A stretch of 64,000 nt of DNA from Burkholderiales bacterium (GCA_018781585.1 JADMJT010000006.1:11116-75115), one strand, 5' to 3'; shown: positions 24,946 through 41,394, numbered from the stretch's first letter. The notes: generated from the letters alone by a model not told the origin. Made by a program: numbers and translations.

Positions 24946-25434
24946 CTAAGTACCCCACGCAGAAAATCGCTTGCGGCACTCTTCCTCGGGGAAGCGGCTT
25001 TCTTCATCCATCATCGCTCGCAGGGCTTCGGTCGCCTTCTTTTTTGAGATGGCCTTGGATTCAACAAGTCGATCGAGCAACCAAAGTGATCCATGAACTA
25101 CTACGAATCGCTTGGCCGCAAGCTTGCGCAGCCTGCCATCGCCTGTCAACAACGTGCACTGCAGCTTGTCGGCCAGAAAAAAACAGGAAACATCTGCGAG
25201 TGAGCTGTAGTTGAGCGTTTGCATTAAGACACCGAGCCGGTTGATTTCTTCGCCGCTGAGGTCGTGAATCTTGAGCCCCAAGGAAATCAGACGCAGGGCT
25301 TCTGGGGCAATCAGTTCTGCCTTGACGAAATCGGTCGTGCAAAATTCGTACGGCAGACTGAACAAGACATCCAACAATCCGGCGCGATGGAAATCAACCC
25401 AGATGTTGGTGTCGGAAACCAGAATGCGAGGCAT
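24946..25434 (-). CDS. PIN-domain-like protein (putative toxin/nuclease)
   Basis: 162 aa. N-terminal ILVSDTNIWVDF acidic motif and TGDGRLRK near the C-terminal half. The start overlaps the upstream gene stop (TGATG). Confidence 0.6.
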   Translation of the reverse strand: MPRILVSDTNIWVDFHRAGLLDVLFSLPYEFCTTDFVKAELIAPEALRLISLGLKIHDLSGEEINRLGVLMQTLNYSSLADVSCFFLADKLQCTLLTGDGRLRKLAAKRFVVVHGSLWLLDRLVESKAISKKKATEALRAMMDEESRFPEEECRKRFSAWGT

Positions 25435-26480
25435 CAGGACTCCAGCGCACCAGCCCGTTCCAGGTCAGATAGCGAAATCTGCAAAAACTCCGCCGCTTTC
25501 GCCGGGGTATACAGCCCCTCCGCAAGCCCCCTGTAAACCAGCCAACGGAAACGGATAGGCTCTTCCCTTTCCAGCTTCTCGGGTTCGTCTTTTCGGAATC
25601 CCCATTGGCTGAACCGCACCATCATGAAACGATAGGTTGCTTCGGAAATGATGGCGATATCCAGCAGGCGGCGCAGCACCGCCTGCATCGATATGCCATA
25701 CGCGCGCTTCGCGAGTTTCAGCTCCTGGATGTGAACATGCGCGCGCTTCCGCCCGAATTCCTCGAAGACTTTCTCTTCCGGAAACAAAAAAGCCCCGGCG
25801 AAGCGGTGGCACCAGTTTTCACAATCCTTATCCGACAAGCTGGCGGGCATCTTCATCACGATATGGCCCAGCTCATGCGCGGCGGTAAATCGCTGTCGCT
25901 CGCCGGGCTTGTTCTGATTCACGATCACGACAATATGGTCGGAATCCTCGACAGTCGCCGAGAGACCGTCGAACGCATCAGGCGCATCAATTTCGACAAC
26001 CTTGATGCCATGATCTTCAAGCAGCTCGGTCAGATTCTGGATCGCATCAATGCCGATGGCCCACTGCTCTCGCAACAATTTAGCAGCGTTCTCAACATCC
26101 TTAACCGTGCGAACTGGAAACTTACGGCCGAGTGGGAAGGAAATCGCGACATCACCTGCTTCAAAGCAGGACTCAAGTGAAAGATATCGCTCGAGATGCT
26201 CGCGCGCCTGCTCTTCAATCGACCGCTGGTTGGTCTTCGAGAGTTTGGTTTGCTTGCGGAACTCGACCTCGCCCAACACCACCGTATCGGGGCGAAAAAA
26301 ATACTCGGGCTTTAACCCGAGTGCGTTGGCCAGTTGAATAATCCTGGTAGAGCCCGGCGTATCCCGCCCGGCCTCGTACTTGCTTAGCGCCTGCTTCGAA
26401 ATATCCCCGATAGCGTCGGCCAGATCCTGCAGCGACATACCCCGGAGAATTCGAGCGCGGCGAATGCGTTCATGTAACAT
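25434..26480 (-). CDS. XRE-family HTH fused to an ImmA/IrrE-type (M78) zinc metallopeptidase
   Basis: 348 aa. HTH RIRRARILRGMSLQDLADAIGDISKQALSKYEAG. HExxH motif AAHELGHIVM. Confidence 0.85.
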   Translation of the reverse strand: MLHERIRRARILRGMSLQDLADAIGDISKQALSKYEAGRDTPGSTRIIQLANALGLKPEYFFRPDTVVLGEVEFRKQTKLSKTNQRSIEEQAREHLERYLSLESCFEAGDVAISFPLGRKFPVRTVKDVENAAKLLREQWAIGIDAIQNLTELLEDHGIKVVEIDAPDAFDGLSATVEDSDHIVVIVNQNKPGERQRFTAAHELGHIVMKMPASLSDKDCENWCHRFAGAFLFPEEKVFEEFGRKRAHVHIQELKLAKRAYGISMQAVLRRLLDIAIISEATYRFMMVRFSQWGFRKDEPEKLEREEPIRFRWLVYRGLAEGLYTPAKAAEFLQISLSDLERAGALES

Positions 26481-26558: not shown

Positions 26559-26765
26559 ATGAGCAAGCAACCTTCCAACCACGGCAAGTCCTGGACGCCC
26601 CAACAGGAAAAGCAGCTTCAGAAACTTGCTCACGAAAACACTCCCACGCGCGTCATCGGCCTCAAGATGGGGCGCACGGAAAGCTCCATCCAGAACAAGG
26701 CGAGCGACGTCGGCGTATCTCTGAAACCGGTCAATCAGTCGCCGTACAACCGCCGCAAACCTTGA
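26559..26765 (+). CDS. small hypothetical protein (possible Myb/SANT-like HTH)
   Basis: 68 aa. AGGAGA lies upstream of the ATG. WTPQQEKQLQKLAHENTPTRVIGLKMGRTESSIQNKA resembles a Myb-like repeat. Weak call. Confidence 0.45.
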   Translation: MSKQPSNHGKSWTPQQEKQLQKLAHENTPTRVIGLKMGRTESSIQNKASDVGVSLKPVNQSPYNRRKP

Positions 26766-26768
26766 GTG

Positions 26769-27635
26769 TCAGCCCCCGGCGGCATGTATAGGCACGATGC
26801 CTCTGCACGCCGGGTACTTTGAGCAGCCCCAAAAACTGCGGCCCATATTCTCACCTTGCTTGGCCGTGCGCCTTACCATCGAAGCACCACACTTCGGGCA
26901 TGCCGGCGCTGAGTCAGCACCCCTGCTAACCGAATCAGATATGACAGGTTCGGCTGCTGCATGAGAAGTGGATCGCACCGAGTCGATAACCCGCCGCAGC
27001 TTTTCTCCATCGATGAGCGCGATATTTTTACCACCTGCAAATTCTTTCGCCTCCTGCGTAAACACACCAGACGTAACAACCACGCCACCCTGCGCTTTCT
27101 GTGCAGCCATCACACCATAAAGCTCACGCACTGTTTTCACGCCAACCTTGAACGTCTTCCACTGCTTGCATTGCACAAGCACTGTTTGCCCGTTCTTCGT
27201 CAGCACTAAATCAACGCCGCCATCCGCGCCACCGCCGCCGATCTCGCGCACGTTGAAACCCTGCCGGCGATAGGCTTCGCCGACCAGCATCTCGAACTCC
27301 TGCCAGGACATGCCATTCAACGCGTCAGCATCCGCACGCTCGCCCGTTTTCTCAAGCAGATTTTCGCGCTTACGCCGACCCAATGCAGAAGCTAATGCGC
27401 CAACCATGAATGCCACAGGCAACAGATACTGCCCAATCATCGCCAGAGTCTTGTAAATCTGTTTAGCCGCGACGCCACCTGCGCCAGCCAGTTGAGTTGG
27501 CGTACTTAACTCCATGACAGCGAAAGGATGGATAACTAAATACGCCACGACTGCAATCACAATTCCAAGCCACCAAGGCAACATTGCAGCCAGGCTAACA
27601 AGATCATCAAATAAACCACCCTTGCGGCGACCCAT
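26769..27635 (-). CDS. membrane-anchored Mrr-like restriction endonuclease-fold protein with a C-terminal topoisomerase-type zinc ribbon
   Basis: 288 aa. Two to three N-terminal hydrophobic helices. Mrr_cat core GGADGGVDLVLTKNGQTVLVQCKQWK. Zinc ribbon CPKCGASMV...FWGCSKYPACRG. Confidence 0.8.
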   Translation of the reverse strand: MGRRKGGLFDDLVSLAAMLPWWLGIVIAVVAYLVIHPFAVMELSTPTQLAGAGGVAAKQIYKTLAMIGQYLLPVAFMVGALASALGRRKRENLLEKTGERADADALNGMSWQEFEMLVGEAYRRQGFNVREIGGGGADGGVDLVLTKNGQTVLVQCKQWKTFKVGVKTVRELYGVMAAQKAQGGVVVTSGVFTQEAKEFAGGKNIALIDGEKLRRVIDSVRSTSHAAAEPVISDSVSRGADSAPACPKCGASMVRRTAKQGENMGRSFWGCSKYPACRGIVPIHAAGG

Positions 27636-27671
27636 TCACTACCCCTTGTTCCCGTTATTCACAGATTCTAA

Positions 27672-29744
27672 TTAAAGCCGTAGATCATCAAGAAATTCGG
27701 AGGGTGTATCACCGCTTGTCACGAGTAGATGATCCCTTGCACGGGTACAAGCCACATAGAGTAAATGGCGTTCCGTGTTGTACACCTCTTCCAAGTCTGC
27801 ATCGTCGGCCACTGTCTCGATCCGCTCTTGCGAGGGGATGATCTCGTCGTCGCAAGCCATCACGACGACAGTTCGAAACTCCAAGCCCTTGGCCAGATGC
27901 ATTGTGCTTATTGAAACATAGCCACTGGTCGTTTCAACGTGCTCATCGAGCACTTTGTAAGGAAACCCCGCCCCTTCAACGGCCCCACGAGCCCTGTCCA
28001 GTTCAGCCGCGGAACGAACAAAAACGCCGATTTCGTGAGGTTTGATCCCCTCATCCCTCCTATCGGAGAGCCATCGCGCGACAACTTTTATTTCCTCGTC
28101 TGGCGTGCTCAGGATTTGGATGGCGGGGGCCGGCCCATTGAATACTGAAACCGTGCCACGTCGTTCCTCCGTATTGCCATCCACATCGGACAATTCCGGC
28201 CCCAGCAATTGATCGGCCTGCATCCGGATCTGATGCGAGGTTCGGTAGTTGATGTGAAGCGTGCGCGAGCGTCCGCGAATATCGACGCCGAGCGCTTTCC
28301 ACGAAAATGCCTGCTGAAAAATCCGTTGTCCCAGATCGCCTGCAAAGAAAAGGCTATTGGGCCGGCCGCCCCCAAGCGCGGCAAGGAAACGCAGTTGGGG
28401 TACATCGATATCTTGAGATTCATCCACCACGGCGAAATCAAATGGCGGATGTTTGCTGTCGGCAAGGTGTGATGCCAACCGGCTGAACATCTCGGCATGG
28501 GTGATCAGCTTGCGCGCTTTCAGCCCGGATCGAGCCTGCTCGAAGATCGACCAGAGCGCGCGCCGCTGCTGTTCCGGCAAGCGGGTTTTTCGCCCCAGCC
28601 GTTTGACATCACGATACGCATCCCAAGTGCCCAACTGCCATGCGTCAACAATCTGCTCCCACTCGGTCAGCAAAAACTGCTGGCTGAATTTGTTGCCATC
28701 GACCTTGCTGGCGACTTCGCCAAGCACCTGCCGCACCATCTCTCGTGAAGCAAGATTGGCCTTGCCGAAATTCGACTCATAGAGCCGCTGGCCAATCGCG
28801 TTCATGGAGTGCACTTCCAGCCGCTCGCCAAGGTGTGGTTCATTGCTGATAAGCCGCCTCAGTTTCGCGCGCAACGCATCGGCCAGCGTGTCAGAAAAAG
28901 TAGTGAGCAACACGCGGCTATCAGGATAGGTGCGGGTGAGAAAAACAGCCCGATGCAACGCAACAATCGTCTTGCCCGTACCCGCCGCGCCGGAAACCCG
29001 CGCAGGGCCACTGTAATCCCGCTCCACCCATTGCCGCTGCGCCGGATGGAGAAAGACAGTCCACTTTTCCCACGGGTAGTCGAGTGCACGCGCCAGCTCT
29101 TCCACATTACTCATCACACGGAAGCGGCGCTGCGCGTCCGGGTGCGCAAACGGGTCAACGCCGATAGCGGCAGGTTTTATGACTTGAGGCGTTACGCCGG
29201 TGGCCAGATCGAGCAAAGCCTCGGCTGCTTCGCCAGGCAAGTGGTCTGCCAGATCGAGAATCGAATCTTCATTCGCCTGGCGCACATCCGCTAGCCATTC
29301 GGCAGGCACCCCGTAGCCGAGCAACTCATCATCAGATACATGCGCAAACAACAGGGGTTTAGCCGGCGCGGCTTGCGCAACCTCGATGTATTTCGGGACG
29401 ATGATTTCCTCAACTCGTTCACGGATTTCCACCAACTGCGCCGCGCCAGTTTTAGGGTGCGTTTCCAGCTTGCGTCGCTCGGCCCAGTGATACGCCTTGT
29501 CGTGGTGATCGACATAGGCCAAGAGCAAACTGGCCGCCGTCTTGTGCACAATCATCCGAATGTCGCTGCTTACCCGTACCGACCAGAAATTCTTGTCCTT
29601 TGCTTTGTCGAGCTTATGGAAGCTCATGCCCGAATTGACCGGATTCATTTGCAGATCGAATGCGGTGGTTTTGACGGCTTTCTGCTCATCGCCTGTGAGT
29701 TTGGCGAGGCTGTCGGTGAAGGTGTCGGCGATGCGGAAGTCCAT
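27672..29744 (-). CDS. UvrD/Rep-type SF1 helicase with an N-terminal RelE/ParE-like domain
   Basis: 690 aa. Helicase motifs SGAAGTGKTIVAL (I), AVVDESQDI (II), INYRTS, MHLAKGLEFRTVVV and YVACTRARDHL (VI). The first 95 aa or so (FHKLDKAKDKNFWSVRVSSDIRMIVHK...LLLAYVDHHDKAYHWA) look like a RelE/ParE-fold module; that part is an inference. Confidence 0.8.
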   Translation of the reverse strand: MDFRIADTFTDSLAKLTGDEQKAVKTTAFDLQMNPVNSGMSFHKLDKAKDKNFWSVRVSSDIRMIVHKTAASLLLAYVDHHDKAYHWAERRKLETHPKTGAAQLVEIRERVEEIIVPKYIEVAQAAPAKPLLFAHVSDDELLGYGVPAEWLADVRQANEDSILDLADHLPGEAAEALLDLATGVTPQVIKPAAIGVDPFAHPDAQRRFRVMSNVEELARALDYPWEKWTVFLHPAQRQWVERDYSGPARVSGAAGTGKTIVALHRAVFLTRTYPDSRVLLTTFSDTLADALRAKLRRLISNEPHLGERLEVHSMNAIGQRLYESNFGKANLASREMVRQVLGEVASKVDGNKFSQQFLLTEWEQIVDAWQLGTWDAYRDVKRLGRKTRLPEQQRRALWSIFEQARSGLKARKLITHAEMFSRLASHLADSKHPPFDFAVVDESQDIDVPQLRFLAALGGGRPNSLFFAGDLGQRIFQQAFSWKALGVDIRGRSRTLHINYRTSHQIRMQADQLLGPELSDVDGNTEERRGTVSVFNGPAPAIQILSTPDEEIKVVARWLSDRRDEGIKPHEIGVFVRSAAELDRARGAVEGAGFPYKVLDEHVETTSGYVSISTMHLAKGLEFRTVVVMACDDEIIPSQERIETVADDADLEEVYNTERHLLYVACTRARDHLLVTSGDTPSEFLDDLRL

Positions 29745-29788
29745 GAATGGTTCTTTGTGTTAGCTAAATATAATCGCGGACTTCAAGC

Positions 29789-31627
29789 TTATGTTGGAAT
29801 GAAGCCCCTACGACCATGGCTTGCGCCGGTAAATCTGATGACATTGATTGCCCCATCAAGATCATGAGGAGGGTCTTCATTTTCAAAGATAATTACTTGT
29901 GCACTTGAAAATTCATCGGCTATCGAACGATAGAAAGCGTCTTTTACGTCTCTGCTGAATTCACCCTCATCAGTATCTGGCTCTCTGTACACGACCAAAG
30001 GTGAGTCAATAACAACAAGACCAGGATGGGGCAAGGACTCATCTAAGCAAAGCCGCATCAACGCGAGATTGAATGCTGCATGAGCAATAGCACGCACACC
30101 CTTTCCGTGACTGGTTCTGCCGCGACCAGAAATAATTATGTCTTGGTCATCTTCACTGAATGTAACGCGGCCTAGGTCAGGAAAATGCCACTCCTTCAAT
30201 AGGTACTCAACTTCCTGACAAAAATCTTCCGCCTCATCAGCACCGACTCTAGTTGACTCCCCCCCCGAGTTTTTCTCTTGCTTCAGGTTTCTCACTTCAT
30301 GTAACAGCACTGTTAACTCTTCCGCACGAGTGTGAATGTCGAGGGCGGCACGGTATGTATCCCGTTCAGATTCGCTGTTTTTAAGCTTTTGCAGGGCACC
30401 ATTCATTCTTGGCCTAATGCGATCGTTAAGCTCTTCTGTGATTGCCTTCAGTTCAAGCTGCGATTCCTTGCCGACAGTTGTAATTCGATCAATTTCAGCA
30501 TCGTTCGATTGCCGGGTTGACTGCAAATCCGCAAGTAATACTCTAATCTTGTTCGCCTCGGCAAGGCATGCAGTTGCTACGTTATCAGGCGCGGCGTTGG
30601 GCAAACGGTGTGTGTGTTCATGGTGCTCAGCAACAGAGCCGCAGACTGGGCAACGCTCTTCCTTCATCTGAGCCAGCCGAGTACCTGCCTCTGCAATGGT
30701 CTCAAGTCGTCGTAGATCAGAAGCGTACTGTTGTTGCAAAAGTTGGAATCTTTGCTGTAGCTCGGTTAACACATCTTTTCGTGATTCCAGTTGGCGAAGA
30801 TGTGTCCAAACTGTTCGGCGTTTATCCTCAAGCGGAGCGACGGCCTTTTGCTCGGCAGCAAGTTCCTCTGATGCATCGGCGTGCAACGCCTCAGCCTGAG
30901 TAAACTGCTGCCTCCACTCGGTCACATTCCCAGCTAGATTTAGCTCGCTCAATTTCTGTTTTGTGCGATCCAATAGTATCTCTAGCACTTCTGTTTTACC
31001 TTGTTGCTTTCCTCTGGCTATCTTGATGTCTTCTTTTGAAATAACGCTCGCATCATCGCTTCCCGCCAATAGAAGACGAAAAACAGAGCTTTCAACAGGA
31101 CGGGTCGAGTACCCGCCGCGCAGAGAGTAGATTGGCGACAACTCACGAATTATGGTTTCTTCATTCACAAGAATTAGTCGAGCAAGATCACGAAAACTAA
31201 ATGGGCGTGTTGTCCCGCGCCGGTTAGTACGAACTGTCTTACCAGCCAAGCAGGATAAGTTCAAAAGTAAATTAGAAATAGTATCGGTGGCACCATCTCG
31301 ATGCTTTCTGCCAAGAATTTTTTTCACTCCGTTCTGGTCATAGAAATTAAAGTCTCCGCCCTTAATGCTTCGCTCTAATATAATTTCTGCTTCATCGTTC
31401 TCCTGGCAAAGAGCGATCTGAACCAAATCGTAGGGCGCAGCTTCGGGTACAGGTTTGGGTGATTTACTCGCGCCAAACATGAAGTCGATACACTGAAAGA
31501 TGAAGGTCTTACCTGTATCCGATGGGCCAGATACGACATTTAGGCCAGTTCTAAAACGAACCTCAGCATTGGGGACGCCCGTACCCATGAGTGTAATGCG
31601 CGAAATATAAAATCTAGTCACTGCCAT
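29789..31627 (-). CDS. lmuB: SMC/Rad50-like ABC ATPase with coiled coil and CxxC hook (Lamassu LmuB / ABC-3C ATPase)
   Basis: The start is taken at the ATG at 31627 (MAVTRFYISRI), which overlaps the upstream stop by 10 nt. Walker A GPSDTGKT. A long heptad-rich middle contains EERCPVCGS. The C-terminal region carries VVIDSPL (Walker B-like). Confidence 0.75.
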   Translation of the reverse strand: MAVTRFYISRITLMGTGVPNAEVRFRTGLNVVSGPSDTGKTFIFQCIDFMFGASKSPKPVPEAAPYDLVQIALCQENDEAEIILERSIKGGDFNFYDQNGVKKILGRKHRDGATDTISNLLLNLSCLAGKTVRTNRRGTTRPFSFRDLARLILVNEETIIRELSPIYSLRGGYSTRPVESSVFRLLLAGSDDASVISKEDIKIARGKQQGKTEVLEILLDRTKQKLSELNLAGNVTEWRQQFTQAEALHADASEELAAEQKAVAPLEDKRRTVWTHLRQLESRKDVLTELQQRFQLLQQQYASDLRRLETIAEAGTRLAQMKEERCPVCGSVAEHHEHTHRLPNAAPDNVATACLAEANKIRVLLADLQSTRQSNDAEIDRITTVGKESQLELKAITEELNDRIRPRMNGALQKLKNSESERDTYRAALDIHTRAEELTVLLHEVRNLKQEKNSGGESTRVGADEAEDFCQEVEYLLKEWHFPDLGRVTFSEDDQDIIISGRGRTSHGKGVRAIAHAAFNLALMRLCLDESLPHPGLVVIDSPLVVYREPDTDEGEFSRDVKDAFYRSIADEFSSAQVIIFENEDPPHDLDGAINVIRFTGASHGRRGFIPT

Positions 31628-32142
31628 GAGACCTCCTGGGCATTCAACACTGACTCCATCTCGAACTCGGCCCCCCACTCGCCAACATGCTTTTCAGCGA
31701 GCTGCGTAATTTCGTTGTCAGACAAGCCCCCAAATTCCGTAACTAACCATGCTGCCCTTTCGCGAAGGTGTGCCAAATACTCCGAGCTTAATACATCAAG
31801 GAAACCAGCCGAACGGTCTGTCGCGGAAAAAAGGACACCGTGTTCCGTGTAATGGCGGTCAATAAGGCCCCGGCTGAGGAATAGCAGCAATCCATCTTCC
31901 AGCATGCTGCGGCGTACCAGCAATTCGCCACTACGATGCGGCGTCTGCGGATGAAGACCAATCGGCCCGCCAGGAATGTCGTCCGAGTGCACGAGCAAAT
32001 AGTCAAAGACAACAAGTCGTTGCAACGAGAGTGCCGAGGGATATGAATCGTTCAAAATGGCCAAAGCACGAAGTCCAATCTCAACGGGGCCGTTGAAGGG
32101 CGAGGGGAGGCGTGGCTGGTGTTGAGTAATCACTTTACCCAC
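31618..32142 (-). CDS. lmuC: small middle component of the three-gene ABC system (LmuC-like)
   Basis: 174 aa with a GTG start overlapping the upstream stop by 13 nt. I recognise no enzymatic motif. The call rests on its position between the effector and the SMC-like ATPase. Confidence 0.55.
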   Translation of the reverse strand: MGKVITQHQPRLPSPFNGPVEIGLRALAILNDSYPSALSLQRLVVFDYLLVHSDDIPGGPIGLHPQTPHRSGELLVRRSMLEDGLLLFLSRGLIDRHYTEHGVLFSATDRSAGFLDVLSSEYLAHLRERAAWLVTEFGGLSDNEITQLAEKHVGEWGAEFEMESVLNAQEVSWQ

Positions 32143-33236
32143 CTAACTTTCTTGTCGTTTGCAAGCTGATGGCAGATACCGCCGCGATCCCGCACCGACA
32201 ATCTAGCATTTAGCGCGTGGCCTGTTAGCTGTAAAAGCCGTGCCGTCTTTACAACAGCCATAACCCGCCGGTATCCATCTTCGTGATGGGTGCGGAAATC
32301 ATCTTTAATCCCGCCGTGAACATCTTCTTGAAGCTTCTCGAATTCACCTGGTGGCAATGTGTCACGTGAAAATGCTCGCAGTGCCTCTGCACTATAGAAC
32401 TCAAGCCGAGAGTCACTGAAGTGTTCACATACGTCAGTCTCGCTTGCGATGTCACCGATGCGATCCACATTCCGCTTTAGGTGATCGGCGTATGCGTCTA
32501 ATAGCTGCCGCACATAATTCGCCTCGTGGTCTGCTGGATCATCTGGTGGCGTGTCCACTGGCGGCCTTAGTGGCAGCCCCCCTCCAAATCGTGCGACATG
32601 CCAACGTGTCTTTGCATGTTCATCAATGATCCGAAGTGGTGGAATAGCACTGAAGATCGAAAAATCTAGCCCATTGATGTATGCCGTGAGCGTGTCGTCA
32701 AGCTCAATGGTTGCAGTTGAAGTAATGCCCGCTCGGCAGTGCGCATCCCAATTGGCTATGAGCTGAGCACGCAGCTCGCTCGGTTTCTTTAGCATATTGG
32801 CCAGTTTTGTTCCTGCACCTTGTGGTGCCACGAAGAAATAGTGCCGGGGGTAGCTGTAGTCCCCGCGCCGAGTGTAGTAGACGAGCTTACCAAGTTCCAC
32901 CCAAATGTCCCCCGGACGCAGTGGGTCTTGATAGTGTTTGCACTGATAGTTGTCCCACTTGCTGTTGTCGAGCTTGCACGTCGCAATAACGTCCCGCCCC
33001 ATGTCCCCAGCACCCCCGCAACGCTCTACAAGGCTGTACTCATTACGGAGCGAGTCGGCCCACTCAAGAACAAATTCCTCCCACTGCCGGTCGCTAAAAA
33101 TCTTAATGCGCTCAATGGCAGGAATGGGAAGCCCTAGAGCAACAAAATCGGGTGGGACAGCAGCGGGTGCTGCGGGCGTTGGTAATGGCTTCGTTTGTGG
33201 GAACGCTGTCATATGGCTACTCCAAAAATAGTCCAT
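32130..33236 (-). CDS. lmuA: effector: Mrr/PD-(D/E)xK-like restriction-endonuclease fold N-terminus plus an ABC-3C-type C-terminal domain (LmuA-like)
   Basis: 368 aa. The nuclease-like core is GGAGDMGRDVIATC...WDNYQCKHY (D...QxK). The C-terminal region ends GGICHQLANDKKVRWVK. Confidence 0.6.
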   Translation of the reverse strand: MDYFWSSHMTAFPQTKPLPTPAAPAAVPPDFVALGLPIPAIERIKIFSDRQWEEFVLEWADSLRNEYSLVERCGGAGDMGRDVIATCKLDNSKWDNYQCKHYQDPLRPGDIWVELGKLVYYTRRGDYSYPRHYFFVAPQGAGTKLANMLKKPSELRAQLIANWDAHCRAGITSTATIELDDTLTAYINGLDFSIFSAIPPLRIIDEHAKTRWHVARFGGGLPLRPPVDTPPDDPADHEANYVRQLLDAYADHLKRNVDRIGDIASETDVCEHFSDSRLEFYSAEALRAFSRDTLPPGEFEKLQEDVHGGIKDDFRTHHEDGYRRVMAVVKTARLLQLTGHALNARLSVRDRGGICHQLANDKKVRWVK

Positions 33237-33248
33237 CCGTGAAGCTGT

Positions 33249-36038
33249 CTATACCACCTTAAACACCTTCATCACCTCATCCCCCAGGTGATTGATAACC
33301 TTTACCGCAATCCGCCCTGACTTGGGTTTGTCGAAAGGCCGTGAGGTGTCGCTGTTGAGCGATGCCCAGGCTTCTTCGTTAATCTCAGCTTTGAGGGTGG
33401 TCTTGAGTGCTTTGTAGGGATCGTTTGCGCCCAAGAAATATGCATGGCGGACGAAGAAGCTTTCTTCGTTGTAGTCGGTGTCGATGAACCAGCAGGCGAT
33501 GCCTTCGGCGCCATCGCTGCGGACTTCTCCGGTGTTGGGGTGGAATACGTCCACGCCGTTGACCTTGACGCGGACTTGACCGGCTTCGGCTTCGATAATG
33601 TCGATGTCCGGCTCGCCGAAGATGACGAAGAGGTTGCCCTTGCCGGTATTTTTGAGATCGTCGGCCATATGCAGATCGGCGTTCATGCGCGCCTTGAGCA
33701 CGGGGATGCGGCCGAGTTTGTCGAATTCCGTTGAACGGGCGTCGTAGTTGAAGGCGCAGGCGATGAGCACATCGAAACCGGCATCGCCCGCTTCGCGTGC
33801 GGCTTCCACCAAGTCAGGGCGGGAGACGGTGCCAAACTCAGGTCCGATGAAGATGGCTGCGCGTTTTTCGCCGCCTGCATCCTCGTATCTCCCTTCGGCG
33901 CAGACCAGATCGCCCGGCCACGGAGTGAGGGAGGTAAAATTTATTTTGTCTTCCTTGTGCGCCTGCTGCACGCCAGCGGTTTTGAGATTTTCCAGGATCA
34001 TCTGGACGAAGTCGCGTTCCTCGCCGTAGCCTGCTTCTGTCTGGGCAGCGCGGTCGATCAGCTCGTCGTTTTCATCCACGGTCAGCACGCGGTGCGGCGA
34101 AAGGCTCTCCACCGTAAAGGGGCCAGCCACGCGAACCTTTTTCTTGTCCTCGTAAGGCTTGTCGTAGAGGTATTCGTGCTCAGCCTTGGCGGCGATGGAG
34201 GCGTCGATTTCTTTCTGGCGGGCGATGCGCGCACTCCACCAGTCAGTGTGCAATTTTTTCGCTGCGTCGGGCCACTTGGCGTCAGCCTCGCGGGGGATTT
34301 CCCATTCATGCCATTGCTTGCCCAGAGCCTTGTTCAGCTGTTCTCGTAGCGGCTCCAGCGTCTTCTGGAACTTGTCCCAAATCACGTCGATCTCGGCGTT
34401 GTTGGCGATGGATTTCAGGGTGACGTGCGGCACGCGCTCATAGACGAAGCCTTGGCGGATGTTGCCGCGTGTGGGCTGACTGGATGGCACGCTGCGGGTG
34501 ATTTCACCTTCCTTGACCTGCCCGTCGCGGCTGTCGGCGAGTAGGTAAAAGGGATAACGGGCGCCCATGATGCGGGCGCGGGCCAGGGCCAGCGCGACGC
34601 GGGAGGTGTCGAGGGTAATCCAGCGACGGCCCCACTGCTCGGCGACATAGGCAGTGGTGCCGGAGCCGCAGGTAGGGTCGAGGACGAGGTCGCCGGGATC
34701 GGTGGCCATCAAGAGACAACGCTCAACCACCTTGGTATGAGTCTGCACAACATAAGTTGGGTCGTCTTCGCCTCTCGTGTCATTCCAGACGTGAGATAGT
34801 TCTCGGTAAGGAAAATCATTGAAGTAGCGTTTGTAAATCCGCAAGCCCGACTGCTGGAGAAGTCGGCCAATTTTCCACAGCCGCCTGATGCCATCCGCCT
34901 GCGTCTTCCAATGACGATTTGGTTTGCAAGACAAAACAATCTTCTTGCCGCGCGCAACAACTTCGATGTCAGGATCATCTCCGCCTTTGGAGACTATGCT
35001 GTCTGTAGTAAGCAGCTTGGCACCGACAGGTAAACTGAGCTTGCCGCCCTCTGTAAAGCCACTAGCCGGCAGAAGCTGACCGTCGTCGAGTTCTACACGC
35101 TTGTATTCTTTTGCTCCAGAGTCACCTGGCGTCGTTTGCTCGTAGAATTTTCGATACTTGATGGCTTCAATTCGCTTGGCGTAAAACACTATGTAGTCAT
35201 GTGTCGTTGGGAGCGTGGAGGTTGTCGAGCCGCTCGTTTTCTGAACGGCGATGAGTGAGCAGAAGTTTTGCTCGCCAAACACCTCGTCCATCACTGCCCT
35301 TACCCGGTGCACATTCTCCTCCCCAATCTGCACAAAAATTGACCCGGAATCGGTCAACAAATCCCGCGCCACGGTCAGCCGGTCGCGCAGGTAGGTGAGA
35401 TAGGAGTGAATACCATCGCGCCAAGTATCGCGAAATGCCTTTACCTGCTCCGGCTCGCGGGTGATGTGGTCGGTGTTGCCGTCCTTCACGTCGCGGCTGG
35501 TGGTGGACCACTGAAAGTTGGAGTTGAATTTGATGCCATAGGGCGGATCGAAATAGATGCACTGCACCTTGCCGCGCAGCCCTTCACGCTCGGCAAGACT
35601 GGCCATGACTTGCAGGCTGTCGCCGAGGATCATGCGGTTGGCCCAGTGGGCATCGTGCTGGTAGAACTCGGTCTTGGCGTTGTCGTCGGGCAGGCCGTTG
35701 AAGTCGGCGAAGAGGTCATCCATTGTGCCCGGTTGCATTTTCTCACTCGCCTCGGTACGTCGGTGCAGGTCGTCGATGAGTACCTTGGGGTGGACCTTCT
35801 CCTGGATGTAGAGCGGCGGCGCATGAACGACGAGATCAGACCAGTCCTGCTCATCCTTGCCGCGCCACACAAGTTGCGGGTCAAGATCGCGGTTGCGGCG
35901 TTCATAGGCCACGCGGACGGGGCTTTGCTCTTCCTTCTGCATCACCGACTGGTATTCGGCGGTAGGAATGTTTTTGCGCGTGGCCTCGTCGTGCTTGAGG
36001 GTTTCGACGGTGAGCTTGGATGTGGGTTTTTTGGCCAT
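33249..36038 (-). CDS. mod: type III-like DNA methyltransferase (Mod; N6A/N4C beta class)
   Basis: 929 aa. Motif IV IYFDPPYGIKF precedes motif I VLDPTCGSGTTAYVA. The start lies 1 nt after the res stop. Confidence 0.85.
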   Translation of the reverse strand: MAKKPTSKLTVETLKHDEATRKNIPTAEYQSVMQKEEQSPVRVAYERRNRDLDPQLVWRGKDEQDWSDLVVHAPPLYIQEKVHPKVLIDDLHRRTEASEKMQPGTMDDLFADFNGLPDDNAKTEFYQHDAHWANRMILGDSLQVMASLAEREGLRGKVQCIYFDPPYGIKFNSNFQWSTTSRDVKDGNTDHITREPEQVKAFRDTWRDGIHSYLTYLRDRLTVARDLLTDSGSIFVQIGEENVHRVRAVMDEVFGEQNFCSLIAVQKTSGSTTSTLPTTHDYIVFYAKRIEAIKYRKFYEQTTPGDSGAKEYKRVELDDGQLLPASGFTEGGKLSLPVGAKLLTTDSIVSKGGDDPDIEVVARGKKIVLSCKPNRHWKTQADGIRRLWKIGRLLQQSGLRIYKRYFNDFPYRELSHVWNDTRGEDDPTYVVQTHTKVVERCLLMATDPGDLVLDPTCGSGTTAYVAEQWGRRWITLDTSRVALALARARIMGARYPFYLLADSRDGQVKEGEITRSVPSSQPTRGNIRQGFVYERVPHVTLKSIANNAEIDVIWDKFQKTLEPLREQLNKALGKQWHEWEIPREADAKWPDAAKKLHTDWWSARIARQKEIDASIAAKAEHEYLYDKPYEDKKKVRVAGPFTVESLSPHRVLTVDENDELIDRAAQTEAGYGEERDFVQMILENLKTAGVQQAHKEDKINFTSLTPWPGDLVCAEGRYEDAGGEKRAAIFIGPEFGTVSRPDLVEAAREAGDAGFDVLIACAFNYDARSTEFDKLGRIPVLKARMNADLHMADDLKNTGKGNLFVIFGEPDIDIIEAEAGQVRVKVNGVDVFHPNTGEVRSDGAEGIACWFIDTDYNEESFFVRHAYFLGANDPYKALKTTLKAEINEEAWASLNSDTSRPFDKPKSGRIAVKVINHLGDEVMKVFKVV

Positions 36039-36039
36039 A

Positions 36040-39000
36040 TTAAATTTCCTCCACCGCTGACTGGGTGGCCACTGAATCGATCATTTTATTGAACTCGGCT
36101 TCGACCTTCTTTGCGAAGTCGTGCTGCATTTGGTACACCTCGGTAAATTCCGCAAAGGCCCAGCGACCGTAGTTGCCCAGGTTGTTCACGCCGGGCACCC
36201 AGTAGATGTCCATGGTGTTTTTCTTTTCCTTGGCGTCTTCGCGGCGATAGCCCTTAATTTCGACAATGAGATGCAGCAAGTCGTCTTCGCCGTGGCCGTC
36301 ATCAACCAGCACGATGAAGTCTGGGATGTACTTGCGCGTTTCGGAGCCATAACGATATGGAACTTCCAGCCCGAGGTTGTGGTTTTTGACATAGGCTTTG
36401 ACGCGCGGGTGCGACTCTGCGACGCGGCAGAATTCACCCTCCCAGTCGCTGTCGAGGATCACCCAGTTGAGGTGGCAACGGCGGGCATCGGTCTCCCAGC
36501 GGTCCATCTTCGAGGTGTTGAAGTTGACATGCGCAGTGCTGCCCACTGGGTTGTAGGGGTCGAGCACGGCTTTGATCGGACGTTTGCCTAGATCAGATCG
36601 CGTGATGCCTGCCACGATGCGCTCGCAGGCCATATCGGCCAGCATTTTGTATTTGAGTTGCGCCGGATAGGTGCCGCCCTTGCACACCAGATAGCCTTCG
36701 ATCCACTGGCGAGCGATGCGCTTGAGTTGGCCGAACAGGTTGAGTTGAGGATCGCCGTTAGCGTCACGGAATTTTGTCAGTAGCAGATGTGAGGTGAGTT
36801 CGTAGATGACTTGTGATGGACGAACATCGCCGGTGTGTACCAGATTCAAATCCACTGTTTCGCCGATGATCCCGGAATTGCGCGTTTCGGTTGCGCCCAC
36901 CAGATCGGGGGTGAGTTCGAGCACGGAGTCGTCGTTGAATTCAGCGGAGAGACGATCTTCTGGCAACTCGGTGCGATAGCCTTGCACGCGCGGGAATGTA
37001 ATCTCGCAGTCATCACGATCGGGACGGATAGCTTTGACCTGGATGGTCTCGCGCGGTTTTTGCGGCGGCGCGACTACAGGTTTGGCGGTGAAATCGAAGG
37101 GGATGCCCAGCACGTCGGCGTATTCGACGTTGAACAGACCTTCCTCGTTGAGCTCGTAGGACTGGCGGCGCAAGGCGCGGCCAATTACCTGTTCGCACAG
37201 CAACTGGGTGCCGAAGGCGCGCACGCCCAGCACATGGGTGACGGTATTAGCATCCCAACCTTCGGTGAGCATGGATACAGACACGACGCAGCGGATGGAA
37301 TCGCCGAGGCGACCGGACTTGCCGACGGTGTTCATCACCTCGCGCAACAGTGAAGCGTCGTCCAGTTCCTTGCCTGCCCGCAGTTCATCGGCGAGTTTGC
37401 CGCCGCGTTCAAAAATCTCTTTGCGAAATTGAGTTATCTCGTCCGATGCCATATTGCGGAAATTGTCATCCAGGGCATCACCGGATTCGAGTTGCTCGCT
37501 ATCTATCAGCAGAGTGCGCGGACGGCCCAGCGGGTTGCCGTGTTCGTCGTGGTTGCGAAACAGGGCAAAACGTCCTTCCACCAGTTTGCTGGAGCCATCA
37601 TCATGTTGTTGCTGAAAACCGGAGATGTAGTCATAAACCAGCTTGGATGCGGATGTGTTGTTGCATACGACGATGAAGCAAGGCGGCACAGAGATTTTTT
37701 CTTTGGCCCAAAGCTCGAAGGTCTTTTCATAATGACCATATAGTGCTTCGAGTGCGGTCTGCAATTGGGTTGGCAGGTCGAGTGGGTTAAGCGTGTCGCC
37801 TTTGCCGCGCCCTTTCTTTGGCATCTTGGCGCGGATGTGTTCCCACAAATTGCGGAACATGGGCATTTCATTGCCGGGGATGTTATCTGCCACTGGCACG
37901 CGCGGTAGCTTGACGATGCCACATTCGATGGCATCCATCAGCGAGAAGTCGCTCATAGTCCAGGGGAACAAAGTGCCTTCAACATAGCCGGAGCCGCTCA
38001 GAAAGAATGGCGTGGCGGAGAGATCAATGACGCGGGGTACACCCAACTTGCGATTGACGGCTTCGAGGCCGGAAATCCATAAGCGTGCCGCCTCATTGTT
38101 TTCTTCGGCTTCCTTTTTCTCGTCGCCTTTCAGGTCTTCGTCATCGGTTTCTGCCTTCGGCTTTTCGCGGTAGCAGTGATGCGCTTCGTCATTGATGACC
38201 AGGACGTTTTTCATGCCCATCAATTCTGGCATGACACGCTGGAGCATTTGACCTTCGGTTTCGAGGGTGTCGAGTGGATCGCCGCCACGCCCTTGCAGCA
38301 GCAATCGCCCGCCTTTGGATAACTCCATGCGTTCGCGCAGTTTGAATGCGTGGTAGTTGGTGATGACGATTTTGGCGCGCTCCAGATCGCCCATCATGTC
38401 GCTGGGCACCAGTTCACGGCTTTGGTAGTAACTGTCCGGATCATTCGGTTGCAGCACGCGCAGGCGATCCTTGATGGTGAGTCCAGGTGCGACGACCAAA
38501 AAGCCGCGCGTGAATTTTTTGCTGGTGGGGCGGCGCACGGCGTTGATGGTCTGCCAAGCAATCAGCATGGCCATGACGGTGGTCTTGCCCGCACCGGTGG
38601 CCAGTTTCAGCGCCAGCCGCATCAGTTCGGGATTGGCATCGTTGTTGGCATTGGTCAGATAATCCAGAAACCGTTCCGCTGATTTGCCCAACTGGGGTGC
38701 GACTTCAGTCAGCCAGATAAGCGTTTCAACCGCCTCGACCTGACAGAAAAATGGACGAACGCCGCTGAAATTGTGATGCCGCCAATGTTGTAACAGCCGC
38801 GCAGTTTCTGGCGAGACGTGCCAAGTGTTGGGATTGGGTAAAGCACGCCATTTACCTACTTCCTGGCGAACCGCGTTGATGATGGCCGCCGTTTTTTGGT
38901 ATTCCTGCGCTTGGGTAGAGAGCCCCTTGTCATCGTCCAGCAACAACGATGTTTGTTCGGCTTGGCCTTTCCGTTTCTTAGGCTTAGGAAGTGGAGTTAT

Positions 39001-39126
39001 GTATTCTGCAGGACGGCGTTTATCAATTATCTGTTGTGTCGGCTGCCCATGGTCGAGTTCCCAATGACGAGATGGATGCTCGTAGGGGGAGTTGAGGATT
39101 GGTTTCTCGAAAAATTGGTTTTCCAT
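36040..39126 (-). CDS. res: type III-like restriction enzyme Res subunit (SF2 helicase + C-terminal PD-(D/E)xK)
   Basis: The track ORF starts at a TTG (39159); I prefer the ATG at 39126 (MENQFFEKPILNSPYEHP). Motif I LATGAGKTTVMA, motif II VINDEAHH. The nuclease motif is YIPDFIVLVDD...LIVEIKGY. Confidence 0.85.
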   Translation of the reverse strand: MENQFFEKPILNSPYEHPSRHWELDHGQPTQQIIDKRRPAEYITPLPKPKKRKGQAEQTSLLLDDDKGLSTQAQEYQKTAAIINAVRQEVGKWRALPNPNTWHVSPETARLLQHWRHHNFSGVRPFFCQVEAVETLIWLTEVAPQLGKSAERFLDYLTNANNDANPELMRLALKLATGAGKTTVMAMLIAWQTINAVRRPTSKKFTRGFLVVAPGLTIKDRLRVLQPNDPDSYYQSRELVPSDMMGDLERAKIVITNYHAFKLRERMELSKGGRLLLQGRGGDPLDTLETEGQMLQRVMPELMGMKNVLVINDEAHHCYREKPKAETDDEDLKGDEKKEAEENNEAARLWISGLEAVNRKLGVPRVIDLSATPFFLSGSGYVEGTLFPWTMSDFSLMDAIECGIVKLPRVPVADNIPGNEMPMFRNLWEHIRAKMPKKGRGKGDTLNPLDLPTQLQTALEALYGHYEKTFELWAKEKISVPPCFIVVCNNTSASKLVYDYISGFQQQHDDGSSKLVEGRFALFRNHDEHGNPLGRPRTLLIDSEQLESGDALDDNFRNMASDEITQFRKEIFERGGKLADELRAGKELDDASLLREVMNTVGKSGRLGDSIRCVVSVSMLTEGWDANTVTHVLGVRAFGTQLLCEQVIGRALRRQSYELNEEGLFNVEYADVLGIPFDFTAKPVVAPPQKPRETIQVKAIRPDRDDCEITFPRVQGYRTELPEDRLSAEFNDDSVLELTPDLVGATETRNSGIIGETVDLNLVHTGDVRPSQVIYELTSHLLLTKFRDANGDPQLNLFGQLKRIARQWIEGYLVCKGGTYPAQLKYKMLADMACERIVAGITRSDLGKRPIKAVLDPYNPVGSTAHVNFNTSKMDRWETDARRCHLNWVILDSDWEGEFCRVAESHPRVKAYVKNHNLGLEVPYRYGSETRKYIPDFIVLVDDGHGEDDLLHLIVEIKGYRREDAKEKKNTMDIYWVPGVNNLGNYGRWAFAEFTEVYQMQHDFAKKVEAEFNKMIDSVATQSAVEEI

Positions 39127-39323
39127 ATTATGTTTTCTGAGGATCAATCCAATATTCAAATAGAGGCATGATGCCGTGCTCCGAGCTCACAGAGTGAGCT
39201 ACTCCCCGTAATTCGCCTGAGTTTTACCAAGCGCATTTACCACAATTTCACGCAATGCCTACGGTTCTAATACTTCTACTTCTAGCCCATGCTTCATGGA
39301 TATCGTTTTCTAAAAAACCCTTT

Positions 39324-39551
39324 TTATTCCTTGCCTGCTGGGCCAGGCGATCCTTCCACTATTTCCAATAGATCCCCTACTTCGCATTCGAATAAGCGGC
39401 ATATTTTTTCGATAGCGATCAGGTCTATGCGCTCTGCTTTCTCGTGGTAGAGCAAGGCAATCGTGTTTCGATTCAAGTCAGTAGCCTTCGCCACGTCGGC
39501 AATTTTCATCTTGTGCTCGCCCATTAGGCGGGACAGGTGGCACTTAATCAT
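39324..39551 (-). CDS. XRE/Cro-type HTH transcriptional regulator (possible controller protein of the downstream array)
   Basis: 75 aa. HTH KIADVAKATDLNRNTIALLYHEK. Same strand as res and upstream of it. Divergent from the AAA+ gene. Confidence 0.8.
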   Translation of the reverse strand: MIKCHLSRLMGEHKMKIADVAKATDLNRNTIALLYHEKAERIDLIAIEKICRLFECEVGDLLEIVEGSPGPAGKE

Positions 39552-39689
39552 TTAGACACTCCAAAATACGAAACGCTACTTTGAATAGCGTAACAACCGT
39601 CAAGAACGCAAAAAGACTTTACAAATGCCATTTAACCGGCTAGAGTGCCATTCAGAATGACAAACCGCCTGTCTAGGAAGGAAGCTGTT

Positions 39690-40847
39690 ATGTCGGATGG
39701 TAGTGCAAAAGTGTGGCCGGGAGAAGACTTCAAGATGGATTCTTTGGAATCGGAGGAGACGCCGGAGTGCAAAGACACTGTAAAAGATGATCAGGAGACA
39801 ACTGCGGATAGCTCTCCGGAGCCAGGTGCAGAACCAGAAGCAGCTACGCCGTCCTGCCCTGCCAATCATATATATGTGCTCGACCCTATCGCCGTGCGCC
39901 GGATGACCAACCCGGTAACGGCCCGGCAACGTGGCGAGACACAGACCCGGCTGCGTGATTTGCTGCTTCAACACCAACATCTCGCCAGCCCGTATCCATT
40001 GCGCCCCTACCCGGCTGATATGGCGCAACGTTGGAAGAAGCTGCGCTCGAAGTTTCCAAATTTCAGCGAAGTGCTCGATCTCTTGGAGAAGCGCTACGCA
40101 CTCGCGCTGCTACGCCGGGACACGCCAGTTTCGTTTCCACCATTGCTTCTGCTCGGAGACCCCGGGGTCGGAAAGACGGCATTCAGCAAAGCACTGAGTA
40201 AGGAAATCGGCTTGTTTTATGGCGAAATTCAGATGTCTGGTCTCACAGAGGCATTTACGATTTCTGGGCTTGATGTCGGCTGGAGCAGCGGCAATCCGGG
40301 CCGCGTGTTTGAATATGTATCGGCCGCCAGGCATGCGAATCCTCTATTGCTGCTCGATGAATTCGACAAGTGTAGTCAAGGCGGCAGTGGTGGCGATCCG
40401 CACGCGCCCTTTCACGTCTTGCTCGAGCGTCATTCGGCGCAGCATTTCGAAGATATGGCAATTCGCCTGCCCGCAGATATGCGTTGGATCAATTGGGTTG
40501 CTACGGCCAATGAACCGCTCGCCATCCCAGCCTCATTGCTTTCCCGCTTCCGGCGAATTGTCGTGCCCAAACCTAGCCGCACGCAGATGACTGCCGTGAT
40601 TAATTCAGTCTACGAGGAGAAGCGCGATTCAGTGACGAACGGCGACTTGTTCGCACGGAAGCTCGACCAGTCAATCGTTGAACTACTTCTGGATCTCACG
40701 CCACGTGCGGTTGGTCTTGTCATCGAGGAGGCCATGGGCGCTTGTGCCAAGCGTTCACGACGCGGGCGATTGCTGCGTATCACGCCTGGCGATGTTTTTT
40801 TGCCGAAAAGCCACGAACAGCGGCGCATCGGTTTTTTCCCCAACTGA
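39690..40847 (+). CDS. Lon-like AAA+ ATPase without a protease domain; acidic, low-complexity N-terminus
   Basis: The track ORF starts at 39645; the ATG at 39690 follows GGAAGGAAG. Walker A LLLLGDPGVGKTAFSKAL, Walker B NPLLLLDEFDK, sensor/Arg region IPASLLSRFRRIVV. This layout parallels the Lon AAA+ module. Confidence 0.75.
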   Translation: MSDGSAKVWPGEDFKMDSLESEETPECKDTVKDDQETTADSSPEPGAEPEAATPSCPANHIYVLDPIAVRRMTNPVTARQRGETQTRLRDLLLQHQHLASPYPLRPYPADMAQRWKKLRSKFPNFSEVLDLLEKRYALALLRRDTPVSFPPLLLLGDPGVGKTAFSKALSKEIGLFYGEIQMSGLTEAFTISGLDVGWSSGNPGRVFEYVSAARHANPLLLLDEFDKCSQGGSGGDPHAPFHVLLERHSAQHFEDMAIRLPADMRWINWVATANEPLAIPASLLSRFRRIVVPKPSRTQMTAVINSVYEEKRDSVTNGDLFARKLDQSIVELLLDLTPRAVGLVIEEAMGACAKRSRRGRLLRITPGDVFLPKSHEQRRIGFFPN

Positions 40848-40881
40848 TCACCAGCTAGCAATCCGCCACAGGAGAATTGAC

Positions 40882-41394
40882 ATGACACCCACTGCAACCA
40901 AGAAACACGAAGCGCGAGACCTTCCACCCCACGACCTGCCCACAGCTCTCGCCGCCCCAGTTGCGCTGATTGCCGACCTCGGCTGGGCTGCTGGGTTCAT
41001 CGACGGAGAGGGCTGCATTTCCGCGGTATGGCAGCGATACAAAGACCCAACTCGACGCACCTGCATTCGTATCAAGTTACAGGTGGCCCAGAACGATTAC
41101 AGCAGCCTTCGGCGGTTGCAAAATATTTTGGGCGTCCAAAGCGAAATCGTGCAGTTGAAGCGGACACAGGCACAAAACCGTCCGGTGTATTCCCTCAACT
41201 TTGATACTCGGCATGCGATCGGCGCACTGCTCAAAGTGGCGCCATTCCTGCATCGCAAGAAGATGGAAGCCGAAACCTGCTTCCAGCTCTGGGTGGAAGG
41301 CATGATGGGCGTGCGCTTCGGGCCCAAGCCTATCCCCGAGGAAATCTGGGCGATCCGGGAGAAATACTTGCTGAAGCTGCAGCGCCTGAAGTAA
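40882..41394 (+). CDS. free-standing single-motif LAGLIDADG homing-endonuclease-fold protein
   Basis: Track ORF 40678..41394 trimmed to the ATG at 40882, which follows GGAGA. The LAGLIDADG motif is LGWAAGFIDGEGCISAV. The second-half motif LLKVAPFLHRKKMEAE resembles the I-CreI-type core. Confidence 0.75.
   Translation: MTPTATKKHEARDLPPHDLPTALAAPVALIADLGWAAGFIDGEGCISAVWQRYKDPTRRTCIRIKLQVAQNDYSSLRRLQNILGVQSEIVQLKRTQAQNRPVYSLNFDTRHAIGALLKVAPFLHRKKMEAETCFQLWVEGMMGVRFGPKPIPEEIWAIREKYLLKLQRLK

Follow-up and report, generated by a model that had tools for sequence, protein, structure and literature searches.

A Lamassu cassette at the Mod-helicase junction of a probable type III-like restriction operon in a Burkholderiales bacterium

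A stretch of 64,000 nucleotides from a Burkholderiales bacterium (GCA_018781585.1, JADMJT010000006.1:11116-75115; hereafter the window, to whose full length all coordinates refer) carries an array of eight genes, all on the minus strand, between positions 26,769 and 39,551. Starting from its XRE end, the array encodes an XRE-type regulator, Res, Mod, the three Lamassu proteins LmuA, LmuC and LmuB, a UvrD-like helicase and a membrane-anchored Mrr-type nuclease. It probably consists of a Res-Mod-helicase operon whose Mod-helicase junction accepts swappable defence cassettes, in this case Lamassu, while the XRE and Mrr genes are separate neighbours. The preliminary description of this DNA had instead seen a fusion of four independent systems, namely a type III restriction-modification (R-M) system, Lamassu, a helicase and an Mrr nuclease. 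All eight co-directional open reading frames (ORFs) lie at the coordinates given there, and profile searches against Pfam, PADLOC and NCBIfam agreed with its domain calls. The division into four does not hold, as Res, Mod and the helicase make up one frame, in which Lamassu is an interchangeable cargo that is also encountered elsewhere.

The association of the three frame genes emerges from a metagenomic census, in which the best 80 of at least 579 confirmed helicase relatives were fetched by helicase similarity and the proteins of the window were mapped onto their loci. In 61 of these 80 loci, the helicase is preceded on its own strand by the 3' end of a Mod gene, coding for a type III-like protein of about 930 aa, and in one more a Mod fragment is found. 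The remaining 18 loci, without Mod, have no more than 4.5 kb of upstream DNA, and Mod precedes the helicase in every locus where more than 4.6 kb is available. Res homologues, 72-89% identical, are present upstream of Mod in 34 of the 35 loci whose contig reaches far enough. The cargo-free form of the locus occurs 16 times, and in it the stop codon of Mod overlaps the start codon of the helicase (TGATG or TAATG; ..GTGGAGTGATGGA..). A cargo-free Pseudomonas plasmid (L087) has the same overlap; RefSeq annotates this arrangement, as three abutting genes, on the finished P. avellanae plasmid p1NCPPB4222, under the labels "BPTD_3080 family restriction endonuclease", "site-specific DNA-methyltransferase" and "3'-5' exonuclease". 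Among plasmids, all Res proteins of at least 53% identity are accompanied by the helicase, except at one locus which is cut by a Tn3 transposase. Viral contigs yielded just three triads, and the triad is therefore not mainly phage-borne. Helicase homologues of 70-80% identity are distributed among Geobacter, Nitrospirota, Methylocaldum, Bdellovibrionota and others, and an identical helicase sequence is annotated in a public record of a Burkholderiales metagenome-assembled genome (MAG). Near-identical DNA was not found in E. coli genomes, and plasmids gave only partial matches to Mod. These comparisons show that Res, Mod and the helicase constitute a conserved triad, which is predicted to be translationally coupled.

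The same evidence bears on the possibility that the array is an ordinary defence island, in which a type III R-M system, Lamassu, a solo helicase and Mrr came to lie side by side through chance accretion at a hot spot formed by the gene for transfer-messenger RNA (tmRNA). Such an origin would suit the tmRNA gene, the integrase and the RosmerTA-like pair which lie nearby, as well as the occurrence of Lamassu and Mrr, each alone, in other places. It is nevertheless improbable, since the helicase is not an independent gene: all assessable loci have Mod upstream of it, and the stop and start codons of the two genes overlap when cargo is missing. The helicase thus belongs with Mod, and Lamassu consequently sits inside an operon and not beside one.

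Between the Mod stop and the helicase start, cargo was found in 45 metagenomic loci (0.4-8.2 kb), or in 51 loci when other sources are added (0.4-9.4 kb), and 74% of the resolvable metagenomic loci are occupied in this way. Plasmids are also represented, two of them with cargo (L088 and L099). The 115 cargo ORFs of the 51 loci form about 85 protein families, and 108 of the 115 (94%) are co-directional with the frame. Packing is tight: the median gap is 30 nt behind the Mod stop, 3 nt from one cargo gene to the next and 21 nt ahead of the helicase start. Most of the cargo is recognizable as defence, including Gabija, PARIS-like, AbiL, HEC-01, reverse transcriptases, GmrSD, SIR2, Hachiman and Thoeris. 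The matches comprise HEC-01A (1e-195), GajA (4e-144), NsnB, AbiLi, AriA, Old and PtuA in PADLOC, and AAA_21, SMC_N, AAA_15, RVT_1, GmrSD, SIR2_2, HamA, ThsB_TIR and STALD in Pfam. A Geobacteraceae locus holds QatABCD, and one of Methylocaldum a ParA-like gene with SIR2. The Res-Mod junction has an insert too in 11 loci, for example Bro-N or DUF4062/HATPase_c_4. The existence of the slot and the variability of its contents are thereby shown. Inspection of the cargo borders revealed no apparent shared attC-like motif.

Decayed remnants of the helicase 5' end, 26-224 codons in length, are seen within the cargo of six loci: L001 (3760-3840), L003 (approximately 190-270), L022 (4838-4933), L038 (5460-5558), L070 (7884-8144) and L094 (6965-7633; L094/95). 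They resemble the scars that would be left if cassettes were stacked through recombination of one triad with another.

The occupant of the slot in the window is a complete type II Lamassu, whose reading frames overlap by 13 nt (LmuA-LmuC) and 10 nt (LmuC-LmuB), and there is nothing unusual in the cassette itself. Its mobility is shown by the range of its surroundings. Inside the triad, it occurs at 94% nucleotide identity in locus L001, where a RhuM gene comes next, and also in a Geobacter MAG (L093) and a Nitrospirota MAG (L094/95), where other two-gene systems and Gabija are stacked with it; the co-cargo beside Lamassu is different in each of these three cases. Outside the triad, a Chromatiaceae MAG (L002) has it immediately after a DUF4011/MTES_1575 helicase-nuclease, at 85% nucleotide identity, and in Crenobacter it lies within a Tn7-like element (L096). 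The DNA held in common with L002 is confined to positions 33223-29784 of the window, that is, it begins about 10 nt ahead of the LmuA ATG and ends 5 nt past the LmuB stop. As this common stretch starts so close to LmuA, the mobile Lamassu unit does not bring its own promoter within it. The DNA upstream of Lamassu is likewise unrelated in L093, L094 and L096. The GC content of LmuB (47.5%) is lower than that of the triad genes (55-58%). The 44-nt spacer which follows LmuB travels with the cassette in L001 and L003.

With regard to the individual Lamassu proteins, the N-terminal half of LmuA has no match in Pfam or the PDB, and its D-x3-D...QxK motif (GDMGRDVIA...YQCKHY) resembles, by inspection only, the Mrr-type PD-(D/E)xK nucleases. 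LmuB gave weak PDB matches to Rad50 and DUF3732. Genes of the RhuM family recur beside these cassettes and beside homologues of the Mrr/zinc-ribbon protein (L001, L002, L003 and L104).

The adjacency of the helicase to LmuB in the window, and the fact that the two share a locus in L001, L003, L093 and L094, could also be taken to mean that the helicase is a Lamassu accessory, forming a four-gene Lamassu variant, and not a partner of the R-M pair. This is hardly credible, as more than 55 helicase loci are devoid of Lamassu, other genes intervene between LmuB and the helicase in those same four loci, and the Lamassu of L002 and L096 is without the helicase.

The outer members of the array behave differently from the triad. 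XRE and Mrr were considered as members of the frame and rejected, because the flanking proteins do not cluster across loci. Downstream of the helicase, 159 of 169 genes are singletons, unrelated between loci; genes and DNA upstream of Res are unrelated as well, the upstream DNA being kept only among close relatives. The Mrr protein is the product of a stand-alone gene with an Mrr catalytic domain (PADLOC mREase_IV, 1.4e-13). Its zinc-ribbon homologues are abundant and terminate other defence operons, such as a type I R-M with PLD in Sideroxydans, hsdMS with DUF6161, and a helix-turn-helix (HTH) gene with a Schlafen-type helicase.

No XRE homologue precedes Res in 22 other triads. The XRE protein does have relatives in other settings: one, of 54% identity, lies directly upstream of a C5 DNA methyltransferase with a 4-nt overlap, on a viral contig (L100, 5454-6928), and another, within the 52-54% identity range, directly upstream of a RhuM gene (L002, 12894-14129). 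Compared with the controller (C) proteins of R-M systems, its position, its size (75 aa) and its HTH_26 domain fit; there is a single 6+6 palindrome, of a kind expected by chance in 14%, and the gene is absent from the 22 other triads. The palindrome in question is the inverted repeat ACGCTA-n7-TAGCGT, which was found exactly where it had been reported; an equivalent repeat arises in 14% of shuffles of the 138-nt region (39552-39689), so that the observed one is not significant alone. The protein is thus plausibly, from its sequence relationships, a portable controller-type regulator, yet one that is local to this locus.

The preliminary description had further proposed a single transcript controlled from the XRE-proximal promoter region. 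The junctions were recovered as it gave them, with spacers of 1 nt (Res-Mod), 12 nt (Mod-LmuA), 44 nt (LmuB-helicase) and 36 nt (helicase-Mrr) besides the two overlaps in the Lamassu genes. Comparison with L001 and L002 places the LmuA start, however, at the conserved ATG at 33212 (MTAFPQ) and not at 33236; the upstream ATG is rejected because it is out of frame in the 94%-identical L001, and the Mod-LmuA spacer is therefore 36 nt and not 12. Similarly, Res starts at the ATG at 39126 and not at the TTG at 39159, which leaves 197 nt between XRE and Res. The claim that terminators are missing was borne out, in that no junction contains a GC-rich hairpin with a T-tract, and terminator-like matches across the region number 14, against 15.8 expected from shuffles. 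Because of the tight packing, the lack of terminators and the boundary of the cassette, the block from res to the helicase would be transcribed together. The helicase may then be expressed only by read-through of the cargo, since its usual coupling is to mod and no conserved region of its own precedes it. Whether this transcript begins at XRE is a different matter. The 197-nt XRE-res spacer contains no consensus sigma-70 match and no terminator, and has no conserved counterpart in other triads. By analogy, one transcript starting at the XRE-proximal promoter is possible, and it has a precedent, as the repressor RptR governs a type I R-M with an embedded DarTG2; the absence of XRE from all other triads and the AT-rich gap of 197 nt ahead of res have to be set beside that precedent.

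These observations also decide on the earlier reading of the eight genes as one obligate system, in which methylation would license the Lamassu sensor, the helicase and Mrr would serve as subunits and XRE would exert control. The genes are indeed tight, co-directional and free of terminators, Lamassu is met again within this frame in three or more additional lineages, and the DNA ends that Lamassu senses (PMC12663957) would be among the products of a restriction enzyme. Yet the slot houses some 85 unrelated families over 51 loci, 16 triads have no cargo whatsoever, the same Lamassu cassette is found elsewhere (L002 and L096), other triads lack XRE and Mrr, and homologues of Mrr end unrelated operons. 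As an obligate system the eight-gene reading is largely refuted, and it is very unlikely. Methylation-aware licensing of the SMC-like (structural maintenance of chromosomes) sensor in particular has no comparative support, given that the cargo varies freely. The suggestion of a larger composite system survives in part: there is a larger unit with operon-like packing, but it is Res-Mod-helicase with Lamassu as a guest, and XRE and Mrr are not conserved in it. In the same manner, when the recurrence of the gene order was checked in unrelated genomes, part of it did recur, namely the triad and the presence of Lamassu in other triads, whereas XRE and Mrr did not.

The Res protein belongs to the NCBIfam family NF046055 (BPTD_3080 family), with 1373 bits against a cut-off of 800. 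The REase_III models of PADLOC barely detect it (E of about 1e-4), and a PADLOC-based survey would for this reason probably miss it. Mod is a beta-class N6A/N4C methyltransferase, in which CIYFDPPYG (around residues 160-170) comes before LDPTCGSGTT (around residues 446-455), and between the DPPY and the FxGxG-type motif lies a region presumed from the sequence to be that of target recognition. The solved structures nearest to it are those of EcoP15I Mod, 4zcf (4e-16) and 6k0w, and Mod has an extra conserved C-terminal region of about 430 aa.

The third protein combines two parts. Its core is similar to UvrD, PcrA and Rep, with intact Walker A (GTGKT) and DExx motifs. For residues 1-110, an AlphaFold2 (AF2) model was obtained with a predicted local distance difference test (pLDDT) of 91.3 and a predicted template-modelling score (pTM) of 0.84. 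The best Foldseek matches of this model were YoeB (2a6r), RelE (3bpq, 3g5o and 2khe) and YafQ (4mmj), at a probability of 1.0 and template-modelling (TM) scores, by target, of 0.67-0.75, while Pfam provides a weak HigB-like match (E 0.005). According to the model, residues 1 to about 100 are thus predicted to be a RelE/YoeB-fold domain. R57, R63, H80, H81 and Y85 are invariant in 35 helicase homologues, at positions which we take to be those where the catalytic residues of the YoeB type are expected. The full-length model is mediocre (pLDDT 66) and gave only generic UvrD matches.

The way in which such a locus would work can be outlined from these features. Promoter-less defence cassettes would embed, in the same orientation, at the Mod-helicase junction and less often at the Res-Mod junction, and the cargo would be exchanged by recombination in the conserved flanks provided by the Mod 3' end and the helicase 5' end. 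Res and Mod may act as a type III-like restriction enzyme, which is consistent with the motif order of Mod, its EcoP15I structural relatives and the domain layout of Res. Lamassu would, by analogy with its characterized counterparts, be an autonomous system that senses DNA ends and deploys a nuclease effector, with abortive infection as the outcome. The weakest step concerns the RelE-fold helicase, which might serve the R-M pair as an accessory or as a back-up effector. A hand-off of Res-made DNA ends to Lamassu is conceivable; the free variation of the cargo disfavours a specific coupling between Res and Lamassu. A more ambitious proposal would have the triad as a three-component immune system, whose junction captures and expresses promoter-less cassettes much as an integron does, with the helicase as an obligatory subunit that supplies a RelE-like, translation-targeting back-up, and with the ends made by Res feeding Lamassu; in this full form the proposal is tentative and rather doubtful.

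Several points weigh against the interpretation of the array as a triad operon with a swappable Lamassu. The loci were sampled by helicase similarity, and close Res-Mod pairs devoid of a helicase were gauged only from about 12 plasmids. The cargo ORFs were defined by a simple longest-ORF rule, and the boundary of the promoter-less cassette is the extent of shared DNA in one comparison with a non-triad locus (L002). Internal promoters within the coding regions are possible. Moreover, a more distant Res-Mod pair (44% identity, PCC 7002 pAQ5) is not accompanied by such a helicase, and distant homologues of the helicase (31-38% identity) follow DruE-like proteins instead. Since these distant pairs and homologues differ in their partners, the Res-Mod-helicase partnership is clade-specific.

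The distant relatives have features of their own. On pAQ5 of Picosynechococcus PCC 7002 (L091), where Res and Mod are of 44-52% identity, a UPF0175/DUF3368 pair is embedded between res and mod, and an ATPase/cytidine-deaminase protein takes the place of the helicase in the third position. This third gene was considered as a diverged helicase and rejected in view of its ATPase/deaminase nature. The DruE-like proteins that directly precede the distant helicase homologues are giant helicases of about 1800-2100 aa, encoded on the E. coli IncY plasmid p2 (L097) and in Nostoc (L098) and Thermus (L089). The idea that these giant DEAD-box proteins are fusions of Res and Mod was dismissed, as they are DruE-like and have no similarity to either. 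Their proximity suggests a second, Druantia-like partnership for the helicase family, and large DNA-translocating defence enzymes may have a general partner in this family.

Embedded defence systems are known from Hma, BREX, DISARM and type I R-M (Payne et al., bioRxiv 10.1101/2024.01.29.577857; for Hma in Halomonas, PMC11232893). These were the hosts analysed in detail for embedding, and type III R-M was not among them (bioRxiv 10.1101/2024.01.29.577857). They resemble the triad in having a multi-gene frame of helicase, methylase and ATPase components that occurs both with and without inserts. In Hma, 62.7% of the loci have inserts and 96.7% of the inserts are co-directional (bioRxiv 10.1101/2024.01.29.577857), much like the occupancy and co-direction of the triad cargo given above, and in both cases the inserts are diverse and rich in ABC-ATPase (ATP-binding cassette) defence systems. 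The host proteins themselves are unrelated: HmaA (Snf2 with DUF3883/NOV_C), HmaB (DUF1156) and HmaC (DUF499) in Hma, as opposed to BPTD_3080 Res, N6_N4 Mod and the RelE-fold UvrD-like helicase in the triad. An assignment of the frame to Hma was therefore rejected; no Hma model is among the PADLOC matches listed for its three proteins, even though PADLOC includes HmaA, and the Pfam domains differ.

The triad shares with type III R-M of the EcoP1I/EcoP15I type (Mod2Res1, PMC4005696) a beta-class Mod and a Res composed of a superfamily 2 (SF2) ResIII motor and a C-terminal endonuclease. It deviates from the two-gene mod-res layout of these enzymes in its order, with res before mod, in its third conserved gene, which is coupled to mod by stop and start codons, and in the additional C-terminus of Mod; the standard type III nuclease profiles see its Res only weakly. 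Type III cleavage depends on ATP and calls for two unmethylated sites in inverse orientation, and the methylation is a hemimethylation of one strand. PrrC in EcoprrI, and DarTG2 with RptR, are like the array in that an abortive-infection or toxin module is nested in an R-M operon, whereas the hosts of both are type I R-M systems and the fold of RptR differs from that of the XRE protein. PrrC is functionally coupled to its host enzyme; for the Lamassu of the array no such coupling is indicated. In enteropathogenic E. coli (EPEC), the small upstream repressor RptR controls the whole block of type I R-M and embedded DarTG2 from one promoter (PMC12255303). As to Lamassu type II and the ABC-3C systems (PMC8565338; PMC12663957), all of the expected components are present, LmuA with CTD6, LmuC with MC2 and LmuB, and only the position inside another operon is noteworthy; the characterized system senses DNA ends and thereby activates a nuclease (PMC12663957). 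A description of the Res-Mod-helicase triad was not found in the literature, which is suggestive, not conclusive, of novelty. The triad is widespread and seemingly unnamed.

Table 1. Features of the array and its surroundings in the window
Feature	Position	Strand	Evidence or remark
tmRNA gene	22957-23323	+	Rfam RF00023, 235 bits; likely island integration site
Membrane-anchored Mrr-type nuclease with C-terminal Top1-type zinc ribbon	26769-27635	-	Mrr_cat 2e-34; Zn_ribbon_Top1 4.5e-10; hydrophobic N-terminus
RelE/YoeB-fold (predicted) and UvrD/PcrA-like superfamily 1 (SF1) helicase	27672-29744	-	UvrD-helicase, UvrD_C (Pfam)
LmuB-helicase spacer, 44 nt	29745-29788	-	Accompanies cassette in L001 and L003
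LmuB, SMC/Rad50-like ABC ATPase	29789-31627	-	PADLOC LmuB PDLC03863 2.9e-165, 549 bits, 3-608 of 610 positions; AAA_23
LmuC (ABC-3C middle component MC2)	31618-32142	-	MC2 1.8e-48; PADLOC LmuC 5.5e-53
LmuA effector	32130-33212	-	CTD6 2.4e-41; PADLOC LmuA 9.2e-121, 402 bits
Mod	33249-36038	-	N6_N4_Mtase 2.5e-29; PADLOC MTase_III PDLC03632, 1489 bits
Res	36040-39126	-	ResIII 1.3e-9 (residues 140-385), RE_endonuc 1.4e-5 (residues 899-985); SF2 helicase and C-terminal endonuclease
AT-rich XRE-res spacer, 197 nt, 42% GC	39127-39323	-	res promoter could lie here
XRE/HTH_26 regulator, 75 aa	39324-39551	-	Pfam HTH_26 3e-20
Inverted repeat ACGCTA-n7-TAGCGT, candidate operator	39573-39591		22-40 nt upstream of XRE start codon

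The surroundings suggest that the array sits in an island of about 28 kb at ssrA, the tmRNA gene (Table 1). A P4-type integrase gene (23288-24748) lies directly downstream of the tmRNA gene; on the far side of the array, positions 49190-51343 contain another integrase-like gene together with an AlpA gene, and from near 52.1 kb the genes are again core two-component genes. A search for a direct repeat of the tmRNA 3' end, which as an attachment (att) site would delimit the island, found none. The tag peptide assigned to the tmRNA by ARAGORN (AESYTWDSVVQGRFAPTRNPRRLA) is atypical, and its reading frame may be mis-called. A Fic/DOC protein (PADLOC SoFic, 1e-50) is encoded on the plus strand at 21771-22850, shortly ahead of the tmRNA gene and beyond the limits of the presumed island.

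Adjoining the array, the minus strand at 24946-26480 codes for a protein with HTH_3 and Peptidase_M78 domains (PADLOC RmrA, 1e-59) and then a DUF3368 protein, which together look like a toxin-antitoxin defence pair of the RosmerTA type. An ORF of 68 aa on the plus strand (26559-26765), without a Pfam match, converges on the stop of the Mrr gene, 3 nt apart, and ends the co-directional run. At the other end, the region 39645-47567 includes an AAA ATPase, weakly IetA/Lon-like and divergent from XRE, and beyond it proteins of 831 and 346 aa without a Pfam or PADLOC match, in addition to a TPR protein; the 831-aa protein has no match in NCBIfam either. Possibly, the genes of this region are uncharacterized defence genes of the same island.

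The present analysis corrects the reading of arrays of this sort, in which the helicase is to be grouped with the R-M pair, Lamassu being the guest. The triad would represent a new and abundant host frame for the embedding of defence systems, with at least 579 relatives in the metagenome scan. Many of the cargo genes are of no known function, and the slot can thus be mined, through guilt-by-embedding, for candidate defence systems. The conserved linkage of a predicted RelE-fold SF1 helicase to a type III-like methylase also raises the question of whether restriction enzymes may possess accessory or back-up effectors.

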